Shown: piece after piece, positions 404 through 52,326 of the stretch
Numbering within the stretch: the first letter of the stretch is position 1
How the letters are laid out: each line of letters opens with the position of its first letter
Virus record (IMG/VR): IMGVR_UViG_3300050139_000117
Location: 1 to 58,317 of that record
Source: a virus
Lineage: Duplodnaviria; Caudoviricetes
Length of the DNA stretch: 58,317 nucleotides
Direction: 5' to 3' (one strand)
The notes under the pieces: generated by a model
Told to the model about the DNA's origin: nothing
Database searches by the model: none
Seen by the model: the letters and a program-made list of their open reading frames with translations, nothing else
Position numbers and translations under genes: made by a program

Positions 404-2224
404 TTATTTCAACAATGTAATGTCTACACGTCTGTTCTTAGCACGACCAGTTTCTGTTTTGTTGTCGGCAACTGGTTCGTTTGAACCTTTACCATCAACC
501 AATTGGAATCTGTCAGCTGATATTCCTTTGCTTGTCAAGTACTGAACAACTGAGTTAGCACGACCCTTGGACAATGTTAAGTTGCTTTGTGGGTTACCAG
601 TGTTGTCAGTGTGACCAACTACTTTCAACTTTGTTTGTTCTGCTTGAATCAATAAGTTGTAGATAGTTTCCAAATCTTTTTCAGAACCTTGAATCGCTGT
701 GCTACCAGTAGCGAAGTTAATGTTCCATTGACCATCAGCCATTACTTCTGTTTTTGTTGCAGTGTAAGTGATTTTCTCAGTCTTACCAGCATCAACATCA
801 GAAACTGATTTCAAGAAGTACAAGTTAACAGCATCTTCGTAAGGAACAACACCATCTTTACATGTACCGTTGAAGTCGCATGGATTTAAGTCGGTTAAGT
901 ATGAAGATACTTGATTGTAAACCGCTTTGTAACGGTTGTTACCATCTGTGATACCGAAGTATTGCAGAGCATCAGCATAGTTCAACACTTTAGAACCACC
1001 AATGTTATAATCTAAACCATCTTTGGTACCTTTTTGACCTTTGAACATGTCATACCAGTATTTTGCTGATTCAAAGTTATACGTTTTGTATACAGCTTCA
1101 GATGCTTTAACAGCCCACTCATCATACAACTTGATTTGGTTGTTCGCAGTATAAGTAGCTTTCAACATTGCAACTACTTGCTTTTCGTTTTGTAAAGCCC
1201 ACTCTTTTACTACAATAATTGATGTAGCCATTTGGTTCATAAAATCTTTTGTAGAAATTACATCAGTGAAACCACTTAGAGCATCAAAGGCAACCTTATC
1301 GCCTGGTGTCCAAGTTACAGCACCGTCAATTTTATGGTTAACTGTTTCTCCAGTTAATTTACCATTCTTAACAACTTTTAAAGGCATTGTGTAGCCAGTT
1401 TTTTGCGATTTAATCAAATCTTTTACTGCTTCGATATAGTCATCGTTTGGAGCAGCAACAAAGTTGATTGCATCAGCATCATAAGTTGATGGGTCTGGAT
1501 TAATATTAATTTTATTAGCCGATGCATAGTTTACCGCTACAACCCAGTCACCGTCACCGATTACTGCTGAGATAACAGCACCTTTAAGCGATTGTGGATT
1601 GTCTTTCCAAATCTTTGGGCCGATTAATTTGTCTTCACCGAAAGACATACCGATTGCTGCGATGTTCTGTACATGGTATTTTCCTTTACCAAATTTTTCA
1701 TCCAATGACTTTTGAGTAGTCGTGATAAAAAAGTCAGCACCATCACCCATGATACTTACAGCAAAAGATGATTTGTCAGAGTTAGGGTTTGCATTACCGC
1801 CAGCAAGTTCTTCAACGAACTTAACAATCATGTTACGCAAATCATTCACACCGTCAATACGCACGATTTCCAAGTTAACTCCAGCGTTCTCCATAAGAGA
1901 GCCTTCAGTTGTACGTGGGCCACCGTTTGCGGCAATCATACCAGCGTTACCATTCCAAGCGTATTCTGCAATACGATAAAGAGGCAAACTAGATACCTTT
2001 GTTGATACAGCCACTGCTGGCAAAGGTAACAAAGCACCTTTTGTTTGGTTATCTAAATTATCAGAGCTTAACTCTAATGATTTCATCTGTTTAGATGCAG
2101 ACACTCGTAGACCAGGTGCAAACCAATACACCAACCCTAACACTAATAGAATACCAACTGTATAGATTGCGCCTTTTGTCAATCCTGTAAGTTTACTCCA
2201 CATTGTTTGTTTTCCGTTTTCCAT
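404..2224 (-). CDS. Membrane-anchored protein with periplasmic-binding-like domain and C-terminal OmpA peptidoglycan-binding domain
   Basis: N-terminal TM helix; OmpA_C motifs VVGHTDNTG, LSKGRANSV, NRRVDI; the PBP-like middle is inferred. Confidence 0.8.
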   Translation of the reverse strand: MENGKQTMWSKLTGLTKGAIYTVGILLVLGLVYWFAPGLRVSASKQMKSLELSSDNLDNQTKGALLPLPAVAVSTKVSSLPLYRIAEYAWNGNAGMIAANGGPRTTEGSLMENAGVNLEIVRIDGVNDLRNMIVKFVEELAGGNANPNSDKSSFAVSIMGDGADFFITTTQKSLDEKFGKGKYHVQNIAAIGMSFGEDKLIGPKIWKDNPQSLKGAVISAVIGDGDWVVAVNYASANKININPDPSTYDADAINFVAAPNDDYIEAVKDLIKSQKTGYTMPLKVVKNGKLTGETVNHKIDGAVTWTPGDKVAFDALSGFTDVISTKDFMNQMATSIIVVKEWALQNEKQVVAMLKATYTANNQIKLYDEWAVKASEAVYKTYNFESAKYWYDMFKGQKGTKDGLDYNIGGSKVLNYADALQYFGITDGNNRYKAVYNQVSSYLTDLNPCDFNGTCKDGVVPYEDAVNLYFLKSVSDVDAGKTEKITYTATKTEVMADGQWNINFATGSTAIQGSEKDLETIYNLLIQAEQTKLKVVGHTDNTGNPQSNLTLSKGRANSVVQYLTSKGISADRFQLVDGKGSNEPVADNKTETGRAKNRRVDITLLK

Positions 2225-6259: not shown

Positions 6260-6515
6260 TTTGTTTTTGTTGTTTTTCTTTTTGTTATGTTATTTTTATT
6301 GTGTTCTAATTCTGTATATGCAAAGATACTAATTTAATCCTTACAAGTCAAGTAAAATATCGTTTATTTTACACTTTATTTTACTGAGTATCAATAAATT
6401 ATGAACACTAAAACAATGAAAAATCAACCTAAAAATGGACTAACTTTTATTATTTCTTTTGCAATGGTACGAGGAATTTTTTAATCAGTCAAGTAAAAGA
6501 CTAAATATATTTTTG

Positions 6516-6636
6516 TGGGGAGAATTTGATTTGAACAAACATTCACATCTACTTAATTGGGGTAGTTATAGTCATCTAAAAGATAATTATAAGCATCCCA
6601 AAACGAGCTTGTTGACTTAACTTAGTCGACCTCCCC
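6516..6636 (-). ncRNA. tRNA-like RNA with a long hairpin in place of the anticodon arm
   Basis: Acceptor GGGGAGG/TCTCCCC, D stem GACT/AGTC, T arm GTTTG-TTCAAAT-CAAAT. Confidence 0.6.
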
Positions 6637-6723
6637 ATTCATCCACTTGAGTCTAGTGGACTAGAATTGACTTCGTTTTTTACTATTCCAAAAACGATTT
6701 AATGGTCTTACCCAATATAAAAA

Positions 6724-6926
6724 AGTCAGTTGATACGTTGGAGTGTTTCAACAAAAACACTTTATTCCAATCGAGTTCTCGCTCTGGCCGTAGAACTATC
6801 TGCCTTAACTCTTTACGGAAGTTACAAACCTCTTGGTACTCTGGCCAATTTTTTGTGAATTAAGGGAACGAGCATCACTACATTTTTATCTTGGCTATTT
6901 TAGCCTAACCAAGCCCATTCACAAAT
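6724..6926 (-). ncRNA. Putative multi-hairpin ncRNA(s)
   Basis: Stems TTTGTGAAT/ATTCACAAA, AGTTCT/AGAACT, TTGGA..GTGTTT/AAACAC..TCCAA in a non-coding gap. Confidence 0.35.
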
Positions 6927-7355: not shown

Positions 7356-7387
7356 AATGGGTTGATATTAATACTCACGTTATTTTG

Positions 7388-7478
7388 TGGGGAAGGCTGG
7401 ATTCGAACCAACGACCCATCGATTTGGGTGAACTAAATCACTTAAAGCCAACTGCTCTACCCTCTGAGCTACCTCCTC
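7388..7478 (-). tRNA. tRNA-like gene with 18 extra nt in the anticodon loop (TTA anticodon if removed at 37/38)
   Basis: GAGGAGG/CTTCCCC acceptor, GCTC/GAGC D stem, GTTGG-TTCGAAT-CCAGC T arm, 25-nt anticodon loop. Confidence 0.6.
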
Positions 7479-7557: not shown

Positions 7558-7754
7558 TGGGGTCTGATGGTTTCGACCCACCAATATTTATCAGTTATAT
7601 CTTCTAGTTTATTTCCATCGTTACGTTTACGATTTATTTCTACTTTAACTTTTAACCTATCGTATTATCCAATATTATTTTGTATACAAATATTAATCGA
7701 ATAATCAGAAACAGATTACAAGTCTGTTGCGTTTACCAATTTCGCCAAGACCCC
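7558..7754 (-). tRNA. tRNA(TGT, Thr anticodon)-like gene with a roughly 130-nt variable region
   Basis: Perfect GGGGTCT/AGACCCC acceptor, ACAGA CT-TGT-AA TCTGT anticodon arm, GGTGG-GTCGAAA-CCATC T arm. Confidence 0.65.
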
Positions 7755-7757
7755 ATG

Positions 7758-7830: not shown

Positions 7831-7929
7831 ATTCGTAATGATTAGTCATATCTTAAGCATTTGAAGATATTGTTTTTCTTTCCTATCAACTTGCGTTGTG
7901 CTTCTAAATACTAACCATTACTTGTTGGC

Positions 7930-8277
7930 TTATCGGTGTATTTCTCCGAATGTTTCAAAGGTGTGAAAACTTACATCACCTTGCCAAATTATTCTAGTAA
8001 ACAAGTTCATCTCATATTGATGCAGACATACATCCAAGAGAAGTTACGGCCTCCGTACAACATGTTTTTTAGGGCCGAGAGTCTATCCTCGTTTTACCAA
8101 CCCATATACATGCCACTGGGAACGTATGATGTTCGTGCTATTGCTAGCTTTGCCTACCTCACCACCAGTACACGATTAAACGTCTACCTTCATGATTACC
8201 ATACTATCGCTATTCGAATTACCGATAAATCGCTACCTTAGGACCATTATTTGTTTTTAGATTGCTGTAACGAACCT
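7930..8277 (-). ncRNA. Putative ~300-nt structured ncRNA plus a 5' hairpin with CAGCAATC loop
   Basis: TTATCGGT (7930-7937)/ACCGATAA (8221-8228) long-range complement; GC-richer; promoter at 8331-8338. Confidence 0.45.
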
Positions 8278-8531
8278 TTATTACTAAAATATTTTTAAAT
8301 TCCTATATGTCAAAAAACGTTTTACTTCTGCAAAGGTACTAACAAATACTTGAAGTGTCAAGTAAAATTAGAAATTATTTTTAATCTAAATAAACACCCA
8401 TGTACTTTATACAAAAATTATCAAACCACATACCAACTTCATAATATAAATCAGCTATTTCAGCATGCTTGGTATTCTCCAATCCACTGATGATTGAATT
8501 CGCAATTGATTGAAGAATCCTTACTTTCATA

Positions 8532-12002: not shown

Positions 12003-12200
12003 TTAGGCTCCTAAGCCGTTGCCCCCTTGACCTGTCATTTTAGATAATTCTAATTGTAATTCACGAATCTTTGTTTGGTAAGTACCAACACTGATTTCTC
12101 GTGTATCGGAAGTTTTCTTTGTTAATGAACTTACCATCTCATCTTGAAGTTGCTTGATTCTTTCTTGAAGCTTCAACTTCTTTTTGTCTAACTTGCTCAT
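12003..12200 (-). CDS. Small coiled-coil protein (start taken at MSKLDK)
   Basis: The track's start at 12224 lies inside a tRNA-like gene. Confidence 0.5.
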   Translation of the reverse strand: MSKLDKKKLKLQERIKQLQDEMVSSLTKKTSDTREISVGTYQTKIRELQLELSKMTGQGGNGLGA

Positions 12201-12215
12201 GTTATTATTTATTAG

Positions 12216-12327
12216 TAGCGGCACCAGGAATCGAACCTAGGTTTATGGCTTGAAATGCTATTGATTGCTGAACGTAATCTTGACAGATTAACTTTTTTTC
12301 ATCGTGCTACCACTACACTATACCGCT
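12216..12327 (-). tRNA. tRNA(TTC, Glu anticodon) with a 41-nt insertion between positions 29 and 30
   Basis: Removing 12259..12299 gives ATGGC AT-TTC-AA GCCAT and a 71-nt cloverleaf. Confidence 0.65.
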
Positions 12328-12334
12328 AATTTTG

Positions 12335-12443
12335 CGGTCTTGGATGGATTCGAACCATCAACCACCTCCGTGCGTGGAGGCATTCATACCTACTCAAGTG
12401 TTTTACACTTGGCAACCTTTCGGCTGTTCTGAACTACAAGACC
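12335..12443 (-). tRNA. tRNA-Asp-like gene with two hairpins in the D-loop and a 6-nt anticodon loop
   Basis: GGTCTTG/CAAGACC acceptor, G73, CCTCC-ACGCAC-GGAGG, GATGG-TTCGAAT-CCATC. Confidence 0.55.
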
Positions 12444-12446
12444 AAG

Positions 12447-12521
12447 TGGAGAATATCGGATTCGAACCTGTGACCCTCTGCTTGTAAGGCAGATGCTCTA
12501 AACCAACTGAGCTATATTCCC
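12447..12521 (-). tRNA. tRNA-Val(TAC), imperfect T stem
   Basis: TCTGC CT-TAC-AA GCAGA; GCTC/GAGC D stem. Confidence 0.85.
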
Positions 12522-12531
12522 ATCTATGAGA

Positions 12532-12867
12532 TTAAATAATCTTATCCCATCTTAATTTACCATCAGCAATTGCTTTACGAATGTAACGCATTAGCGTGAT
12601 TGTTTTATATGAATTTTCAAATCTAGTTTCACCAACATCTGTTGATAACTTAATTATCTGAATCTCATCTTCACCTTCATTTTCTGGTGACATGTAATCT
12701 GTTTCAACAATTGCTATTGGAAATTCATATTTGTATTTCTCAACCACACCAGCTTCAAAAGTATAAAATAAATTACCTTCTTTATAGTGTGAAAATTTTG
12801 CTTCACCAGACTTAACCATTTCTGGTAAGGTATGTGGTATTTGTATTTTTTCTATATTTGTTTCCAT
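12532..12867 (-). CDS. Hypothetical phage protein
   Basis: 111-aa ORF. Confidence 0.65.
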   Translation of the reverse strand: METNIEKIQIPHTLPEMVKSGEAKFSHYKEGNLFYTFEAGVVEKYKYEFPIAIVETDYMSPENEGEDEIQIIKLSTDVGETRFENSYKTITLMRYIRKAIADGKLRWDKII

Positions 12868-12873
12868 ATTAAT

Positions 12874-13206
12874 TTATTTTGGTCTTACCCCGTTAGCATA
12901 ATGTATTTCATCACGTCTATCAATTTCACTGAATGGACTGGTACCAATACCAATCATATCAATATTTTTGAAACCATTTTCTTCAGTAATGATTGTTTCA
13001 TCTGGTAATACACTTCCAGTAAACTTATCAAAACCTTTTTTGTTTTCAATCTTACCAGTTGAAGGATTAAAAGAACCCCAATCAGCTGGTCTACCATTAC
13101 CTTGTGGTTCGATAAAATAACTAACACCAGTTTTACTAGATGTTACTCTAAATCTTCCCGTTTCATCTCTGTCTTCAAAAAATTTTGCTCTAATCGTTGC
13201 TTCCAT
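12874..13206 (-). CDS. Hypothetical phage protein
   Basis: 110-aa ORF (TGRF.V.S..TG..YFIEP...WG motif). Confidence 0.65.
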   Translation of the reverse strand: MEATIRAKFFEDRDETGRFRVTSSKTGVSYFIEPQGNGRPADWGSFNPSTGKIENKKGFDKFTGSVLPDETIITEENGFKNIDMIGIGTSPFSEIDRRDEIHYANGVRPK

Positions 13207-13237
13207 TTGTTTTATTTTTAAAACACTTTTTATTTTG

Positions 13238-13308
13238 AGTCCCTAGATGGATTCGAACCACCGTAAAAGCTTTTGCAGAGCTTCACCTAGCCACTCGGTC
13301 ATAGGGAC
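13238..13308 (-). tRNA. tRNA-Cys(GCA)
   Basis: AAGCT CT-GCA-AA AGCTT; U73 discriminator. Confidence 0.92.
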
Positions 13309-13313
13309 ATATT

Positions 13314-13589
13314 TTATTCTTCTTTATATTTAATCACCGTCACAATTTCTTGGTCTGGTGGTAAATTGTTAATTAATCTTACTGAAACTGGTAATATGTA
13401 ATTATCATCACAATTCTTCCCTTCTTCACAACATTCCCACTCACCAGTTTCTTCATTCTTAACCATCCTTTTACAACCTTCATATAGTTGTGCGATGTTT
13501 CCTTTTACATGACCTTTCAAACCATCAAGTAAACCTAAAGAATCCCATTTACTAACGATTTCTTCTCGTTTTATTTTATCATTTTCCAT
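13314..13589 (-). CDS. Small protein resembling the N-terminus of gp23-type major capsid proteins
   Basis: KWDSLGLLDGLKGHVKGNIAQLYE. Confidence 0.5.
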   Translation of the reverse strand: MENDKIKREEIVSKWDSLGLLDGLKGHVKGNIAQLYEGCKRMVKNEETGEWECCEEGKNCDDNYILPVSVRLINNLPPDQEIVTVIKYKEE

Positions 13590-14260
13590 TCTTCAATCTT
13601 TTTTTTAAGTTCTTCTAATGTTATCGAAGATTTATCTTTCTTTTTACTATTATCATAATGTCTAACTAATTTACAATTAGCTGGGTGAGCAATTATTTTT
13701 GGGTCTATGTTATTTATATACCCTTCTTTGACTGAATACATATGGTCTCTACTAACACCACCTAAATTATCACCTCTATTTTTAGCCTTATACCATCCAT
13801 ATTTTTCAATAAGTTTAAAATCAAATTTGTTTGGATAATCGTTAAGACTAAACTTAAATTCACACAATTGTCTATATCTCACTAATCCAACAGCATTACT
13901 TTCACCATACTTACCATTTTTCCAAGCTAATGATAATCCTTCACTTTTACTTCTTGGGGTTAACTTATTATTTTTAACACCCCATTGTAATGCTACTGTT
14001 GTTAGTCCAAACTCTTTTCGTAAATCATTATATGATAACCCATCATTATATAATTTCTGAATCTCACCCCAATTATAATTTACATATTTAGTTTCACCTT
14101 TATTACCACCACTTATAAAAGGACTTTTATATCCTAATCTATGTAGTTTTCTAGTTACACTACCTTGTGATATTTTAAATACATCTGCAATTTGCCTAAA
14201 ATTATATCCTTCTTCTATTAACGATATCGCTTTATTAATATTTTCTTCTGTCCATTTCAT
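13571..14260 (-). CDS. HNH-type homing endonuclease with N-terminal HTH (start MKWTEE)
   Basis: SRDHMYSV...IIAHPANC...NSKK; the longer start runs through a tRNA. Confidence 0.75.
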   Translation of the reverse strand: MKWTEENINKAISLIEEGYNFRQIADVFKISQGSVTRKLHRLGYKSPFISGGNKGETKYVNYNWGEIQKLYNDGLSYNDLRKEFGLTTVALQWGVKNNKLTPRSKSEGLSLAWKNGKYGESNAVGLVRYRQLCEFKFSLNDYPNKFDFKLIEKYGWYKAKNRGDNLGGVSRDHMYSVKEGYINNIDPKIIAHPANCKLVRHYDNSKKKDKSSITLEELKKKIEEWKMIK

Positions 14261-14313
14261 ATACAATAAATATCTGAAACTTTTCAAAAAGTCAGAGATG
14301 TTTAAACCACTAG

Positions 14314-14383
14314 AGCTGGTGGTTGGAATCGAACCAACACTATTAGTTTTGCAGACTAATTGCTCTCCACGAACAACACCAGC
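14314..14383 (-). tRNA. tRNA-Cys(GCA), second copy with reduced D-loop
   Basis: GCTGGTG/CACCAGC, TTAGT CT-GCA-AA ACTAA, U73. Confidence 0.8.
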
Positions 14384-14440
14384 ATTTATCAAAGAACGTT
14401 TGGTTTTAAACCACTCACAACACGTGAACATATATAAAAC

Positions 14441-14508
14441 AAAAAAACCCATCTTTTGGATGGGCTACAGTTGTTTAAGTTATAATCTACTTAACAAACA
14501 TAGCCCAT
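14441..14508 (-). terminator. Attenuator terminator with overlapping antiterminator
   Basis: CCCATC-CAAAA-GATGGG-T7 terminator; ATGGGCTA in the leader (14501-14508) complements TAGCCCAT (14460-14467). Confidence 0.8.
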
Positions 14509-14565
14509 GCCGTCTACCACTAGTAAACACAATAAAAGGACTAATATGTTTGATAAATTTTTCAT
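14491..14565 (-). CDS. Leader peptide MKNLSNILVLLLCLLVVDGMGYVC
   Basis: 24-codon uORF between the promoter (14608-14615) and a terminator, upstream of Cys/Cys/Val tRNAs. Confidence 0.7.
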   Translation of the reverse strand: MKNLSNILVLLLCLLVVDGMGYVC

Positions 14566-14595
14566 TTCTTTTGTTTGTGGGTTTCCCCGTTTGTT

Positions 14596-14639
14596 AATAA
14601 ATATATGCAAAGGTACTAAAAGTTTTTGATATTGTCAAG
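14596..14639 (-). promoter_or_regulatory. Bacteroidota-type promoter (TACCTTTG) plus ATATTTAT motif
   Basis: Matches the TAnnTTTG -7 consensus; same motif recurs before many minus-strand genes. Confidence 0.7.
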
Positions 14640-14680
14640 TTTTTTTTAATATATTTTTGATATTTATATCAAACACCTTT

Positions 14681-15247
14681 ATGCTTAAGCAATTAGTTCG
14701 TAAATATCTCCTAGAATACATGATTGATGAAGCGGTTCCTATGGGCCACTTTAAAGACCGTGTAAAAGAGGTTATTGGTGATATACAGTCGATTCAGTTA
14801 CCCCCTAATATCTATTTACCTAATGTACCACAAGAAGTTCAAGATGCTTGGATAATCAGTCAAATCAAAGCCAAGATGCTTGCTAAGATAAACGCTGTTG
14901 AAGCTAAAGACTATCCTACAACTAGAGGTAGTTGTGTTTTGGTACCACTAGGTATAATTAAAGTTCAACCTATAAAAGGTAATCCAACCAACATTTTAAT
15001 CACTGCTAAAAGAAAAGAAGGAACGATGACTGGATTCTCTTACTATATCACTATATATGAGAATCGTATGCCTACTATTGTTCTTGCTGACCCAAAGATT
15101 AGAGCTAACTCTAGCATTGGGGCTCAACTACAAGCACATATTGATAACACCGTTAAAAATAATTGGCCTGTGAATAAGGAAAAGTCGTTTATAGACAAAT
15201 CCTTTATTGATAACATCATTATACCGATGTCAGAGTTTAAAGTTTAA
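14681..15247 (+). CDS. Hypothetical, possibly virion-packaged protein (start MLKQLVRKYLLE)
   Basis: ATATTTAT motif upstream; shared N-terminal pattern ending in LLE. Confidence 0.6.
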   Translation: MLKQLVRKYLLEYMIDEAVPMGHFKDRVKEVIGDIQSIQLPPNIYLPNVPQEVQDAWIISQIKAKMLAKINAVEAKDYPTTRGSCVLVPLGIIKVQPIKGNPTNILITAKRKEGTMTGFSYYITIYENRMPTIVLADPKIRANSSIGAQLQAHIDNTVKNNWPVNKEKSFIDKSFIDNIIIPMSEFKV

Positions 15248-15528
15248 TCCAGTGTATCTAAAAATTCACTATTCGTAAACTCGATATAAATTTCAATAGT
15301 TCCGTCTTTAAGTTTTGCTTCAACTTGTCTTACTTCACCAATGACATTAGCATAAATTATTTCATTTATACTAGCAATATCTTCTTCATTAACAGTTGCA
15401 TCTTTAAACTTGATGAGTGCATCAATCGGCTCCTTATCAATCGGTATAATACTAGATAGTTCAAATCCAGATACACCAAATTGAGCTATCATGGCTAAAA
15501 AAATACCTGTTAAATTTACATTTTTCAT
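15244..15528 (-). CDS. Hypothetical protein
   Basis: 94-aa ORF with TACCTTTG promoter. Confidence 0.55.
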   Translation of the reverse strand: MKNVNLTGIFLAMIAQFGVSGFELSSIIPIDKEPIDALIKFKDATVNEEDIASINEIIYANVIGEVRQVEAKLKDGTIEIYIEFTNSEFLDTLD

Positions 15529-19272: not shown

Positions 19273-19441
19273 AAAATGATTTATCCAACATTGGATATTT
19301 CGCTAATATGTTTGGTGCTTCTACTTCAAATAACTTTGTTCCTTCGGCCCATGCTCTGTCTATCGGTACGCCTCCCCACAATATTTGACATACAAATTTG
19401 TACTCTTGGTTAGACAATTTCTTATCCTTGGAAGTTTCCAT
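19256..19441 (-). CDS. Hypothetical protein
   Basis: 61-aa ORF directly after a TACCTTTG promoter. Confidence 0.5.
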   Translation of the reverse strand: METSKDKKLSNQEYKFVCQILWGGVPIDRAWAEGTKLFEVEAPNILAKYPMLDKSFFEYKI

Positions 19442-49221: not shown

Positions 49222-49225
49222 ATTG

Positions 49226-49313
49226 CGGATGGTACAGGATTCGAACCTGTGATGGAACTTACGTTCACCAGATTAACAGTCTGGACTTTTCGACCAACTA
49301 AAGCAAACCATCC
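49226..49313 (-). tRNA. tRNA-Asn(GTT) with long variable arm
   Basis: CCAGA CT-GTT-AA TCTGG; V-arm GAAC-GTAA-GTTC. Confidence 0.8.
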
Positions 49314-49676: not shown

Positions 49677-49756
49677 TAGGGACGATGGGACTTGAACCCA
49701 CATTTTCAACGACCATTACGGTTATACAAGGTATAAGCTTGCATCGGTACGTCCCC
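49677..49756 (-). tRNA. Rewired tRNA-Ile(TAT)
   Basis: GGGGACG TAC CGA TGCAAG CTTATAC CTTGTA TAA CCG TAATGGTC GTTG AAAAT then T arm. Confidence 0.65.
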
Positions 49757-50500: not shown

Positions 50501-50537
50501 ATATTATAAATATGTAGCAAGTACAGAAAGTTCAAGG

Positions 50538-50620
50538 TTGTGACGGTGAGAATCGAACTCACTTTGTAGTTGCCTACCCACGGTATCAGCGTGGTACCTA
50601 AACCATCCAGCCCCGTCACA
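50538..50620 (-). tRNA. tRNA-Ile(GAT) with long variable arm
   Basis: CCACG CT-GAT-AC CGTGG; V-arm GTAG-GCAA-CTAC. Confidence 0.78.
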
Positions 50621-51097: not shown

Positions 51098-51103
51098 ATT
51101 TTG

Positions 51104-51191
51104 GGTGTCAGACGAGACTCGAACTCGCAAGGAACTTTCGTTCTTCTGGCTCACAACCAGACTCGATAACCATTTACGGACTACAGACACC
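51104..51191 (-). tRNA. tRNA-His(GTG) with long variable arm
   Basis: G-1/C73; TCTGG TT-GTG-AG CCAGA; V-arm GAAC-GAAA-GTTC. Confidence 0.75.
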
Positions 51192-51557: not shown

Positions 51558-51561
51558 AAAT

Positions 51562-51651
51562 ATCGCAGTACAGGATTCGAACCTGTGGTCCCCAGAACGG
51601 GGACATCCTCTTTCATTGGAGGATTGCTTTAAGCCACTCAGCCAACTGCTT
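51562..51651 (-). tRNA. Ser-like tRNA with enlarged anticodon loop and frayed acceptor (pseudo or atypical)
   Basis: ATCCTC-CAATGAAA-GAGGAT; V-arm GTCCCC/GGGGAC; intact T arm. Confidence 0.55.
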
Positions 51652-51654
51652 CTG

Positions 51655-51754
51655 CACGTACAGTAGGATTCGAACCCACATAGAGACTTAATTCCAAAGA
51701 ATACTTGCTCTCGGTTTTGGAGACCGTTGCCTATAACCATTCGGCCATGTACGT
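51655..51754 (-). tRNA. tRNA-Trp(CCA) with very long variable arm
   Basis: ACGTACA/TGTACGT, CT-CCA-AA, about 30-nt V region, G73. Confidence 0.75.
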
Positions 51755-52028: not shown

Positions 52029-52123
52029 AAAAAACCCGACTTAGATTTCTCCGAGTCGGGTCTGAATGTTATTTGTTATTATGATTAAAAATCATCGTAA
52101 AAATTAACAGCCATAGCCGACTC
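52029..52123 (-). terminator. Attenuator terminator with competing antiterminator
   Basis: ACCCGACTC/AAGTCGGGT stem then T-tract; GAGTCGG in the leader (52117-52123) complements CCGACTC. Confidence 0.85.
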
Positions 52124-52186
52124 AAACTGGTGACTATTACGTCTCCAATTGCTAATCGATATTATATGCATGTTAATTGTTCTCAT
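52085..52186 (-). CDS. Leader peptide MRTINMHIISISNWRRNSHQFESAMAVNFYDDF
   Basis: 33-codon uORF between promoter (52223-52230) and terminator; codons match the downstream tRNA set. Confidence 0.8.
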   Translation of the reverse strand: MRTINMHIISISNWRRNSHQFESAMAVNFYDDF

Positions 52187-52192
52187 TTTATT

Positions 52193-52326
52193 ATAAATAT
52201 ACTGTTATTGTTAAAAGTTATACAAAGGTACTAACTATTTTTGTAAAAAGCAAGTTTTTTTGTAATTATTTTCAAATTATTTTATTTCTTAAGTGCAAAG
52301 GTACGAATAATACTTGAATTCACCAA
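52193..52326 (-). promoter_or_regulatory. Two Bacteroidota-type promoters plus ATATTTAT motif driving leader and tRNA array
   Basis: TACCTTTG at 52223-52230 and 52296-52303; ATATTTAT at 52193-52200. Confidence 0.7.

Follow-up and report, generated by a model that had tools for sequence, protein, structure and literature searches.

Results

Organization of the locus

The window, by which we mean the whole stretch of 58,317 nucleotides that was analysed (IMG/VR record IMGVR_UViG_3300050139_000117), comes from a large phage of Bacteroidota-type bacteria. On its minus strand a promoter of what appears to be the Bacteroidota type is followed by a short uORF, an intrinsic terminator and a block of tRNA genes (Table 1), and all elements named in the first-pass annotation are found at their places. 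The extended -7 box TAGTACCTTTG, allowing up to 1 mismatch, occurs 15 times in the window, all on the minus strand, against 1.16 expected, and 0 of 100 shuffles reach 15. The same box is found in front of a second leader unit in the window, at 52223-52233, and in front of ordinary genes. The uORF lies 35 nt after the likely transcription start and translates as described earlier.

Table 1. Features of the leader, the tRNA array and the sister unit (positions in the window)
Feature	Position	Strand	Remarks
Upstream promoter element TTGACA	14633-14638	-	Contains the TTG of the presumed -33 element; 20 nt upstream of the -7 box
-7 promoter box TACCTTTG	14608-14615	-	TAnnTTTG type
Leader uORF	14491-14565	-	24 codons plus TAA
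Sensor run	14515-14544	-	Codons 8-17 (L V L L L C L L V V), followed by the conserved GAC
Segment 1	14538-14541	-	GUCC, codons 9-10; with AUU at 14533-14531
Inner hairpin of the uORF	14511-14529	-	Possible RNA polymerase pause hairpin
Segment 2	14499-14509	-	Antiterminator 5' strand, codons 19-23; ATGGGCTA(TG) at 14508-14499
Segment 3	14459-14469	-	Terminator 5' arm plus 5 nt upstream; (TG)TAGCCCAT at 14469-14460
Intrinsic terminator	14441-14464	-	CCCATC-caaaa-GATGGG followed by T7
tRNA-Cys(gca)	14313-14383	-	First gene after the terminator
227-aa ORF	13571-14254	-	Inserted in the array
Second tRNA-Cys(gca)	13237-13308	-
tRNA-Val(tac)	12446-12522	-
Aberrant tRNA-like gene X	12335-12443	-	At the place where relatives have tRNA-Leu
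Aberrant tRNA-like gene Y	12216-12330	-	Called an Asp-like RNA earlier
Sister unit	52035-52186	-	33-codon uORF and terminator before the Trp/Ser/His/Ile/Asn/Arg array

The pairing between the end of the uORF and the 5' arm of the terminator is part of the minimum-free-energy fold, with a duplex energy of -14.3 kcal/mol, and in two separate tests 0 of 300 and 3 of 300 shuffles do as well. The first-pass annotation needs to be corrected on three points. The RNA it took to be Asp-like is one of two aberrant tRNA-like genes. The two attenuators of the window, described as having no shared sequence, do share the promoter and 5'-UTR module, with 76% identity over 67 nt. Lastly, a further conserved hairpin inside the uORF points to a design of four segments and not three.

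The aberrant gene X scores 40.4 bits against the Rfam tRNA model, which places a 43-nt insert in the D-loop and finds an anticodon loop of 6 nt, while Y scores 24.2 bits, below the cut-off of 29. ARAGORN in intron mode calls Leu(gag) for X and Val(tac) for Y, but with short introns at non-canonical sites, and BLAST against the tRNAs and contigs of relatives gave only T-arm matches and no homolog. We give no assignment to either of them.

Conservation of the leader

We found 12 distinct homologous leaders in viral and metagenome contigs (the loci are denoted by G and L numbers below). All 12 keep the ATG, the reading frame and the position of the stop codon at a length of 24-26 codons, and the only indels are in frame, while the N-terminal codons, the spacer and the letters of the terminator differ. 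All 11 with enough DNA keep a terminator 24-32 nt after the stop codon. ARAGORN calls Cys(gca) as the first tRNA after the terminator in 9 homologous loci, and in 2 more (G001 and L056, the latter the closest relative of the window) it is Cys-like by eye only. Ten of the 12 leaders were however found with an exact 18-mer from the inner hairpin, and the conservation of that hairpin, in which 100% of cells are paired in 7 of 7 sequences, is thus partly built in, as six of these seven were found by an exact match to this stretch. The independently found L044 keeps the hairpin with changed letters. Six of the 12 metagenome hits to the 18-mer were unrelated contexts. Seven of the 8 new loci sharing a tRNA-Cys 20-mer have no leader; in 4 the Cys gene lies inside a mixed array, in 1 it follows a protein gene and in 2 there is too little upstream DNA. 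Searches with the neighbouring 188-aa protein and with an exact 21-mer of the first tRNA-Cys of the window gave no related locus.

All three alternative helices keep their pairing potential. For the 1:2 helix 93.9% of cells are paired, against 31-57% in slid registers, for 2:3 the value is 83.1% against 30-47%, and for 3:4 it is 92.1%, the slid registers of all three together falling at 16-60%. RNAalifold predicts 1:2 and 3:4 on its own. Segment 2 is the best duplex partner of the 5' arm of the terminator in 10 of 11 leaders, and in L044 the partner is shifted to nt 49-60. Covariation is formally supported only for the terminator, where 3 of 500 shuffles reach the observed score, whereas for 1:2 and 2:3 it is not above column shuffles in the test on 7 sequences. 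Three lineages do carry changes on both strands of the 2:3 helix: G003 has A-U for G-C, with the matching change in segment 4 as well, L064 has A-U where its close relative G002 has G-U and the others G-C, and L062 has GGGUU with AACCC where the others have GGGCU with AGCCC. These were read by eye from the individual duplexes, since the 11-sequence alignment misplaces the arm of L062 and a pair count was not run on it.

Leader codons and downstream tRNAs

The leader of the window has 7 Leu, 4 Val and 2 Cys among 23 codons, and the first-pass annotation had remarked on the lack of a tRNA-Leu downstream. The relatives provide an answer to this, as the order is Cys, Val, Leu in 5 of the 7 arrays in which at least 3 tRNAs are visible. 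The window and L056, which shows no tRNA-Leu within 3.6 kb, are the 2 exceptions. In the 5 of 5 relatives whose arrays could be scored (L056 was not scored), the longest runs of leader residues whose tRNAs follow are 7-10 residues, with a simulated P of 2e-5 or less. In the window itself, counting canonical tRNAs only, the run is 2 of 23 and the match is not significant (P=0.09). In G005 each of the 7 distinct anticodons of the array has a cognate codon in the leader, and G002 lacks Val(gac) and Leu(aag), while its leader lacks GTC and CTT.

At least three other leader classes, in the same phage group, in LR756511.1 and in Lak-C1, spell the amino acids of their own arrays, and the longest-run probabilities are about 1e-5 to 1e-8. 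The sister unit (Trp/Ser/His/Ile/Asn/Arg) has a run of 13 residues within the set of its array, with P of 9e-7 or less. Leaders of the Phe/Glu/Asp/Ala class have runs of 14, 11 and 6, and the Ser/Leu/Tyr leader in LR756511.1 has a run of 12 that uses all six Ser codons. In one Lak-C1 leader 16 of 41 residues fall in the ARAGORN-called set His/Pro/Arg/Cys/Met (P=7e-5), whereas a second Lak-C1 leader is uninformative because its array covers 82% of the amino-acid background. For the Phe/Glu/Asp/Ala class we could however not find any convincing antiterminator, as its own duplexes of -7.3 to -9.2 kcal/mol are no better than shuffles or swapped arms. No leader of that class exists in the window, and the promoter at 8341-8331 in front of tRNA-Phe is followed by a long stretch without a leader. 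The main 76-kb tRNA region of LR756511.1 showed no leader-terminator unit, and its arrays are too mixed for the run test. A scan for a promoter, then a uORF and then a terminator returned these leader units and one other hit, an Arg-rich uORF with a terminator at 19391-19277, which overlaps a 61-aa ORF and was rejected as a leader.

No promoter box lies between the terminator and the tRNAs, and in 4 relatives the gap between the T-run and tRNA-Cys is only 10-14 nt, so the array can only be reached by read-through. One array (G005) does have a promoter-like box inside it, at position 15355, and G002 has three such boxes between a leader and its tRNAs.

Discussion

The most likely explanation, to which we give a probability of about 0.7, is that the unit is a ribosome-mediated transcription attenuator of the classical four-segment type, which controls read-through from a phage promoter into a tRNA array and the small genes scattered within it. 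The anatomy, its conservation and the match in related phages between leader codons and downstream tRNAs support this, while the translation of the leader, the direction of the switch and the physiological signal are inferred without any RNA or experimental data. If the tRNAs are plentiful, the ribosome would run to the stop codon and cover segment 2, segments 3 and 4 would form the terminator, and transcription would stop before the tRNA genes. If the charged tRNAs are scarce, the ribosome would stall on the sensor codons and cover segment 1, leaving segment 2 free to pair with segment 3, and the tRNA genes would be transcribed. If the leader is not translated at all, 1:2 and 3:4 should form and terminate transcription. 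The net effect would be a demand-driven and self-limiting supply of phage tRNAs. The comparative evidence supports the core of the first-pass annotation, that this is a peptide-dependent attenuator in front of the tRNA cluster and one instance of a general design that divides the code among several attenuated tRNA operons.

The same parts could possibly work in the opposite direction, although we find this unlikely. A ribosome that follows the RNA polymerase closely to the stop codon, 26 nt before the terminator stem, might hinder the hairpin, so that fluent translation gives read-through and stalling gives termination, and the array would be expressed only when the leader can be read well. 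The narrowly kept distance of 24-32 nt in all classes speaks for this, as does the failure to find an antiterminator for the Phe/Glu/Asp/Ala class, and the efficiency of a terminator has been reported to depend on its distance from the end of a translated gene (PMC4824070). However, given the probable footprint of a ribosome, one at the stop codon should not reach a stem that begins 24 nt or more downstream, the 1:2 and 2:3 pairings, whose potential is kept, have no role in this model, and positive feedback on tRNA supply seems less useful to the phage.

Less likely still, though it could act alongside the main mechanism, is that a phage suppressor tRNA reads the stop codon of the leader, and that the ribosome then runs into the terminator and melts it. 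The window encodes a tRNA with anticodon tta (7478-7387), and past the TAA of the leader the frame stays open through the terminator. In LR756511.1 the leader is followed by in-frame TAG TAG GCT TAG, and that genome has a tRNA with anticodon cta. On the other hand, the stop codons of the 12 leaders vary (TAA, TAG, and TGA in L054) without relation to the suppressor seen, and long ORFs of the window are intact under the standard code.

It is also doubtful that the uORF encodes a functional small hydrophobic peptide with a leaky terminator of its own, the tRNAs simply being co-transcribed at a fixed low level. The core of the peptide (ILVLxLCLLVVD) is indeed hydrophobic and conserved in 12 homologs, but leaders of other classes are not hydrophobic and have the same architecture, each matching its own array. 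In the core, synonymous positions are conserved as strongly as the amino acids, and G002 replaces Val by Ala through a change that keeps the 1:2 pair. A chance ORF next to an ordinary terminator or processing hairpin is very unlikely in view of the conservation, the frame-keeping indels and the run statistics in four independent classes, even if short ORFs are common in AT-rich DNA and many terminators in the window have small ORFs upstream.

The leader-peptide attenuators of amino-acid biosynthesis operons (trpL, hisL, leuL, thrL, ilvL/ivbL, pheL; PMC3082878, PMC6614838) are the closest known systems, with a short translated leader containing a run of regulatory codons, four RNA segments, an intrinsic terminator directly before the regulated genes, a readout that depends on charged tRNA and, as in thrL and ilvL, sensing of several amino acids at once, though for the present unit the switching between the segments and the readout are inferred. 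Here, the downstream genes are tRNA genes and small ORFs without Pfam hits, except for one HTH domain, so that the sensed molecule and the product would be the same kind of molecule. In relatives the codon list follows the isoacceptor set of the array, and the unit sits in a phage and comes in several classes that divide the code. T-box riboswitches would also link read-through at a terminator/antiterminator switch to the state of a specific tRNA, but a T-box would bind uncharged tRNA directly, without a ribosome or uORF, and control synthetase and amino-acid genes. Neither a T-box nor any Rfam leader family was found, with only tRNA matches in 12150-14700 at E up to 1 and in the whole window at gathering scores. 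In attenuation by ribosome-polymerase coupling, as in pyrBI, the leader probably runs through the terminator, whereas here it stops 24-32 nt before it and the pairing potential of alternative helices is kept. Large sets of tRNAs have been reported in the same kind of huge phage genomes (Al-Shayeb et al. 2020, PMC7162821), but none of the words attenuat-, leader or terminator occurs in that text, its supplements aside, and we found no published description of the unit.

Phage tRNAs are usually treated as constitutive helpers for codon usage or as replacements for tRNAs destroyed by host defence, and how their expression is controlled is largely unknown. We hypothesize, and consider it about as likely as not, that huge phages of Bacteroidota, including the Lak megaphages, divide their tRNA genes into modules, each headed by its own leader peptide that serves as a codon checklist for that module. 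Such a system would sense, codon by codon, when the host pool cannot serve the AT-rich phage genes or has been cut by anticodon nucleases, and then switch on just the tRNA block that is needed. It would be the first case of tRNA genes autoregulated by translation of their own cognate codons, a simple homeostat for tRNA supply and a new use of a textbook mechanism. It could explain why the tRNA genes in these genomes are grouped by amino acid, and it gives a sequence rule for predicting which tRNAs belong to one transcription unit, which could also help to name aberrant tRNA genes such as X and Y. The units could also serve as compact sensors for individual tRNAs.

The 227-aa ORF inserted in the array is the one with the HTH domain (HTH_7, Pfam PF02796, E=1.3e-6), which lies at its N-terminus, and its 3' part resembles Lak phage DNA.

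The viral fragment and its leader unit

The 58-kb window is a fragment of an uncultivated virus, estimated by CheckV to be 16% complete, and it carries 20 tRNA genes, all of them on the minus strand. At the DNA level it resembles the Prevotella Lak megaphages only in a tRNA and in one ORF, and one protein is 51% identical to the 595-kb phage LR756511.1. An 11-base promoter box, TAGTACCTTTG with up to 1 mismatch, occurs 15 times and always on the minus strand, against 1.16 expected. Its TAnnTTTG core, with a TTG about 20 nt upstream, is probably of the Bacteroidota promoter type.

Every element named in the first-pass annotation, which proposed an attenuator in front of a Cys/Cys/Val tRNA cluster, is present. 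The alternative pairing joins a stretch inside the uORF to one that overlaps the 5' arm of the terminator, it is part of the minimum-free-energy fold, and the whole leader folds with z=-3.9. Downstream lie tRNA-Cys, an ORF with an HTH domain, a second tRNA-Cys, small ORFs and tRNA-Val(tac), followed by two aberrant tRNA-like genes, X and Y, to which we could not assign an identity.

Coordinates of the features in the window and in related contigs
Feature	Sequence	Position
-7 promoter box	window	14615-14608
Hairpin GGGG(A/T)AACCC in the 5' UTR	window	14579-14588
Leader uORF	window	14565-14491
Alternative pairing, stretch inside the uORF	window	14508-14499
Alternative pairing, stretch overlapping the terminator's 5' arm	window	14469-14460
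Terminator	window	14464-14441
First leader unit (Trp/Ser/His/Ile/Asn/Arg class)	window	52186-52035
Promoter box, Arg-rich ORF and terminator mimicking a leader unit	window	19277-19391
Normal and long tRNA copies	window	51103-51190, 50536-50620, 49225-49313, 7387-7478, 51655-51754, 49677-49756
tRNA with an unusual anticodon loop	window	51561-51652
tRNA with anticodon tta	window	7387-7478
Interrupted tRNA-like gene with a GTA anticodon arm	window	about 7560-7756
G+C-richer stretches without ORFs	window	7840-8330 and about 6500-6900
Stretch after the leader, with two terminators	G001 (L006)	430-600, minus strand
End of the Ser/Leu/Tyr leader	LR756511.1 (L013)	11618-11600, minus strand
Joined promoter, 5' UTR and leader	L056 (OCZT010002789.1)	460-660

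Homologous leaders and the missing tRNA-Leu

An exact 18-mer from the uORF found 6 IMG/VR contigs, all 6 of which are homologous leaders, and the same 18-mer found 12 metagenome stretches, of which 6 are leaders (2 identical to known ones) and 6 are unrelated. An anchor that is independent of the leader, a 20-mer of tRNA-Cys, found one more leader, L044, which lacks the exact 18-mer. This gives 12 distinct leaders of 24-26 codons, in which start, frame and stop position are conserved and the only indels are in frame. A terminator lies 24-32 nt after the stop in all 11 leaders with enough DNA. In one relative, G001, the leader is followed by a terminator, the start of a tRNA-Cys, an NN gap, a repeat of 22 nt with a second terminator, an inserted ORF and then tRNA-Cys, which looks like an assembly of two population variants, with and without the inserted gene.

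ARAGORN calls Cys(gca) as the first tRNA after the terminator in 9 loci, and in 2 more it is Cys-like by eye. Seven arrays show at least 3 tRNAs, and all 7 contain Val, while 5 contain Leu, in the order Cys, Val, Leu. The exceptions are the window and the relative L056, whose leader peptide is identical to that of the window. The first-pass annotation had noted that the leader is rich in Leu codons but found no tRNA-Leu downstream, and proposed to look for tRNA-Leu in orthologous clusters; this test thus gives the predicted result in relatives, but the window's own lineage remains a mismatch. X and Y sit at the position where relatives have Leu. L056 also joins the promoter and 5'-UTR letters of the window's first attenuator to the leader of the second one, which suggests that leader modules recombine, and its array runs Cys-like, Val, Phe, Val, Phe, Asp, Ala, Asp, without a separate leader for the Phe/Asp/Ala genes.

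Other leader classes

The first unit of the window has a run of 13 residues, all from Trp/Ser/His/Ile/Asn/Arg, which are the amino acids of the array that follows, and homologs exist in the relatives G002 and G004. In G002 and two further relatives, G003 and G005, a third class has runs of Phe/Asp/Ala/Glu before arrays of Phe, Glu, Asp and Ala, and in G005 this unit directly follows the Cys/Val/Leu array. In LR756511.1 a GTG-started leader with 8 Ser (all six codons), 5 Leu and 2 Tyr, together with a strong terminator, precedes an array of 4 Ser, 5 Leu and 2 Tyr tRNAs. This leader ends in in-frame TAG TAG GCT TAG; if TAG is read through, the frame runs into the terminator, and the genome carries a tRNA with anticodon cta. 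In Lak-C1 a leader rich in Met, His, Pro, Cys, Gly and Arg, plus a terminator, lies 14 nt before His, Pro, Arg, Arg, Cys and Met tRNAs, and that uORF contains an 8-base copy of the 3' arm of the terminator.

For the statistics, amino-acid sets were taken automatically from the ARAGORN calls and background frequencies from long ORFs. The longest-run test gives an upper bound of 9e-7 for the first class, and simulated P of 2e-5 or less in the 5 relatives with scorable arrays of the Cys/Val/Leu class. For the three members of the third class it gives upper bounds of 2e-8 and 2e-6, and simulated P of 4e-3, and for LR756511.1 an upper bound of 3e-8. Lak-C1 has 16 of 41 residues in the set, P=7e-5. 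The window's own unit, however, has a run of only 2 of 23 and P=0.09 when Cys and Val alone are counted. In a cross table each class matches its own array set best.

Predicted RNA structure and transcription unit

RNAalifold on 7 sequences predicts the terminator, and also a long hairpin inside the uORF in which GUCC (codons 9-10) pairs with the GGGC of the antiterminator strand; this would be the 1:2 helix of a classical attenuator. The 1:2 helix has 93.9% of cells paired, against 31-57% when slid, and the inner hairpin has 100%. The 2:3 helix has 83.1%, against 30-47% when slid, and 3:4 has 92.1%, against 16-60% when slid. Covariation beats column shuffles only for 3:4. In 10 of 11 leaders the best partner of the terminator's 5' arm lies at codons 19-26, and between 0 and 29 of 300 shuffles do as well. 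Three lineages (G003, and the leaders L064 and L062) show changes on both strands of 2:3, although these were read by eye, because the 11-sequence alignment misplaces one arm. Swapping arms between classes favours the class's own arm for two classes, but not for the Phe/Glu/Asp/Ala class. A small hairpin in the 5' UTR is shared by the window's leader and by two different leader classes of G005, but is absent from other homologs.

No promoter box lies between the terminator and the tRNAs, and in the window none lies between 14608 and 8948 with the strict box. In 4 relatives tRNA-Cys starts 10-14 nt after the T-run. A loose box scan shows arrays bracketed by a promoter plus leader and the next promoter, the exceptions being one box inside an array in G005 and three boxes after a leader in G002. 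Elsewhere in the window a promoter box, an Arg-rich 21-codon ORF and a terminator at +24 mimic a leader unit, but the ORF overlaps a 61-aa ORF in another frame and no tRNA follows within 4.9 kb.

Proposed mechanism

The best reading is a classical four-segment attenuator whose sensor codons are those served by the array in related phages. We infer that scarcity of those charged tRNAs would stall the ribosome on segment 1 and the sensor, which would free segment 2 to block the terminator and let the tRNA genes be transcribed, while fluent translation would cover segment 2 and allow termination. The direction of the switch, translation of the leader and the natural trigger are all inferred, and function has not been shown, but the interpretation is supported by comparison across at least four independent leader classes and three phage groups. 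Reverse polarity through ribosome-polymerase coupling is an unlikely alternative, control by stop-codon suppression and a functional hydrophobic peptide are more doubtful still, and chance is the least probable.

The anatomy appears to be that of the trp, his, leu, thr and ilv leaders, and the difference is the target, which is tRNA genes in a phage, and the modular division of the code. No Rfam family other than tRNA matches. We found no paper describing leader-peptide control of tRNA genes or arrays, but as most subscription journals were outside the search, a prior description cannot be excluded. The text of the huge-phage paper (PMC7162821), supplements aside, contains none of the words attenuat-, leader or terminator.

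Unusual tRNA genes and possible structured RNAs

Many tRNA genes of the window come in pairs of one normal copy (72-75 nt) and one long copy (83-100 nt) of the same anticodon, for His, Ile and Asn, and several are found only by Rfam with inserts. The phage seems to carry a second, structurally unusual set of tRNAs. ARAGORN reports tRNAs with 8-nt or 6-nt anticodon loops (four-letter or two-letter "anticodons") in every larger contig of this phage group, namely in the window, G002 (ttta), G003 (taaa, ga), G004 (tt) and LR756511.1 (gaaa). A 92-nt tRNA with anticodon tta would read TAA, and the relatives G004 and LR756511.1 carry a tRNA with anticodon cta. Long ORFs of the window are intact under the standard code. 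By eye, a tRNA-like gene with a GTA (Tyr) anticodon arm is interrupted by an insert of about 150 nt between the anticodon arm and the T arm, and it is called by neither ARAGORN nor Rfam. G+C-richer stretches without ORFs lie downstream of promoter boxes, in front of tRNA-Phe and between genes; they have no Rfam match at gathering scores, but may be structured RNAs.
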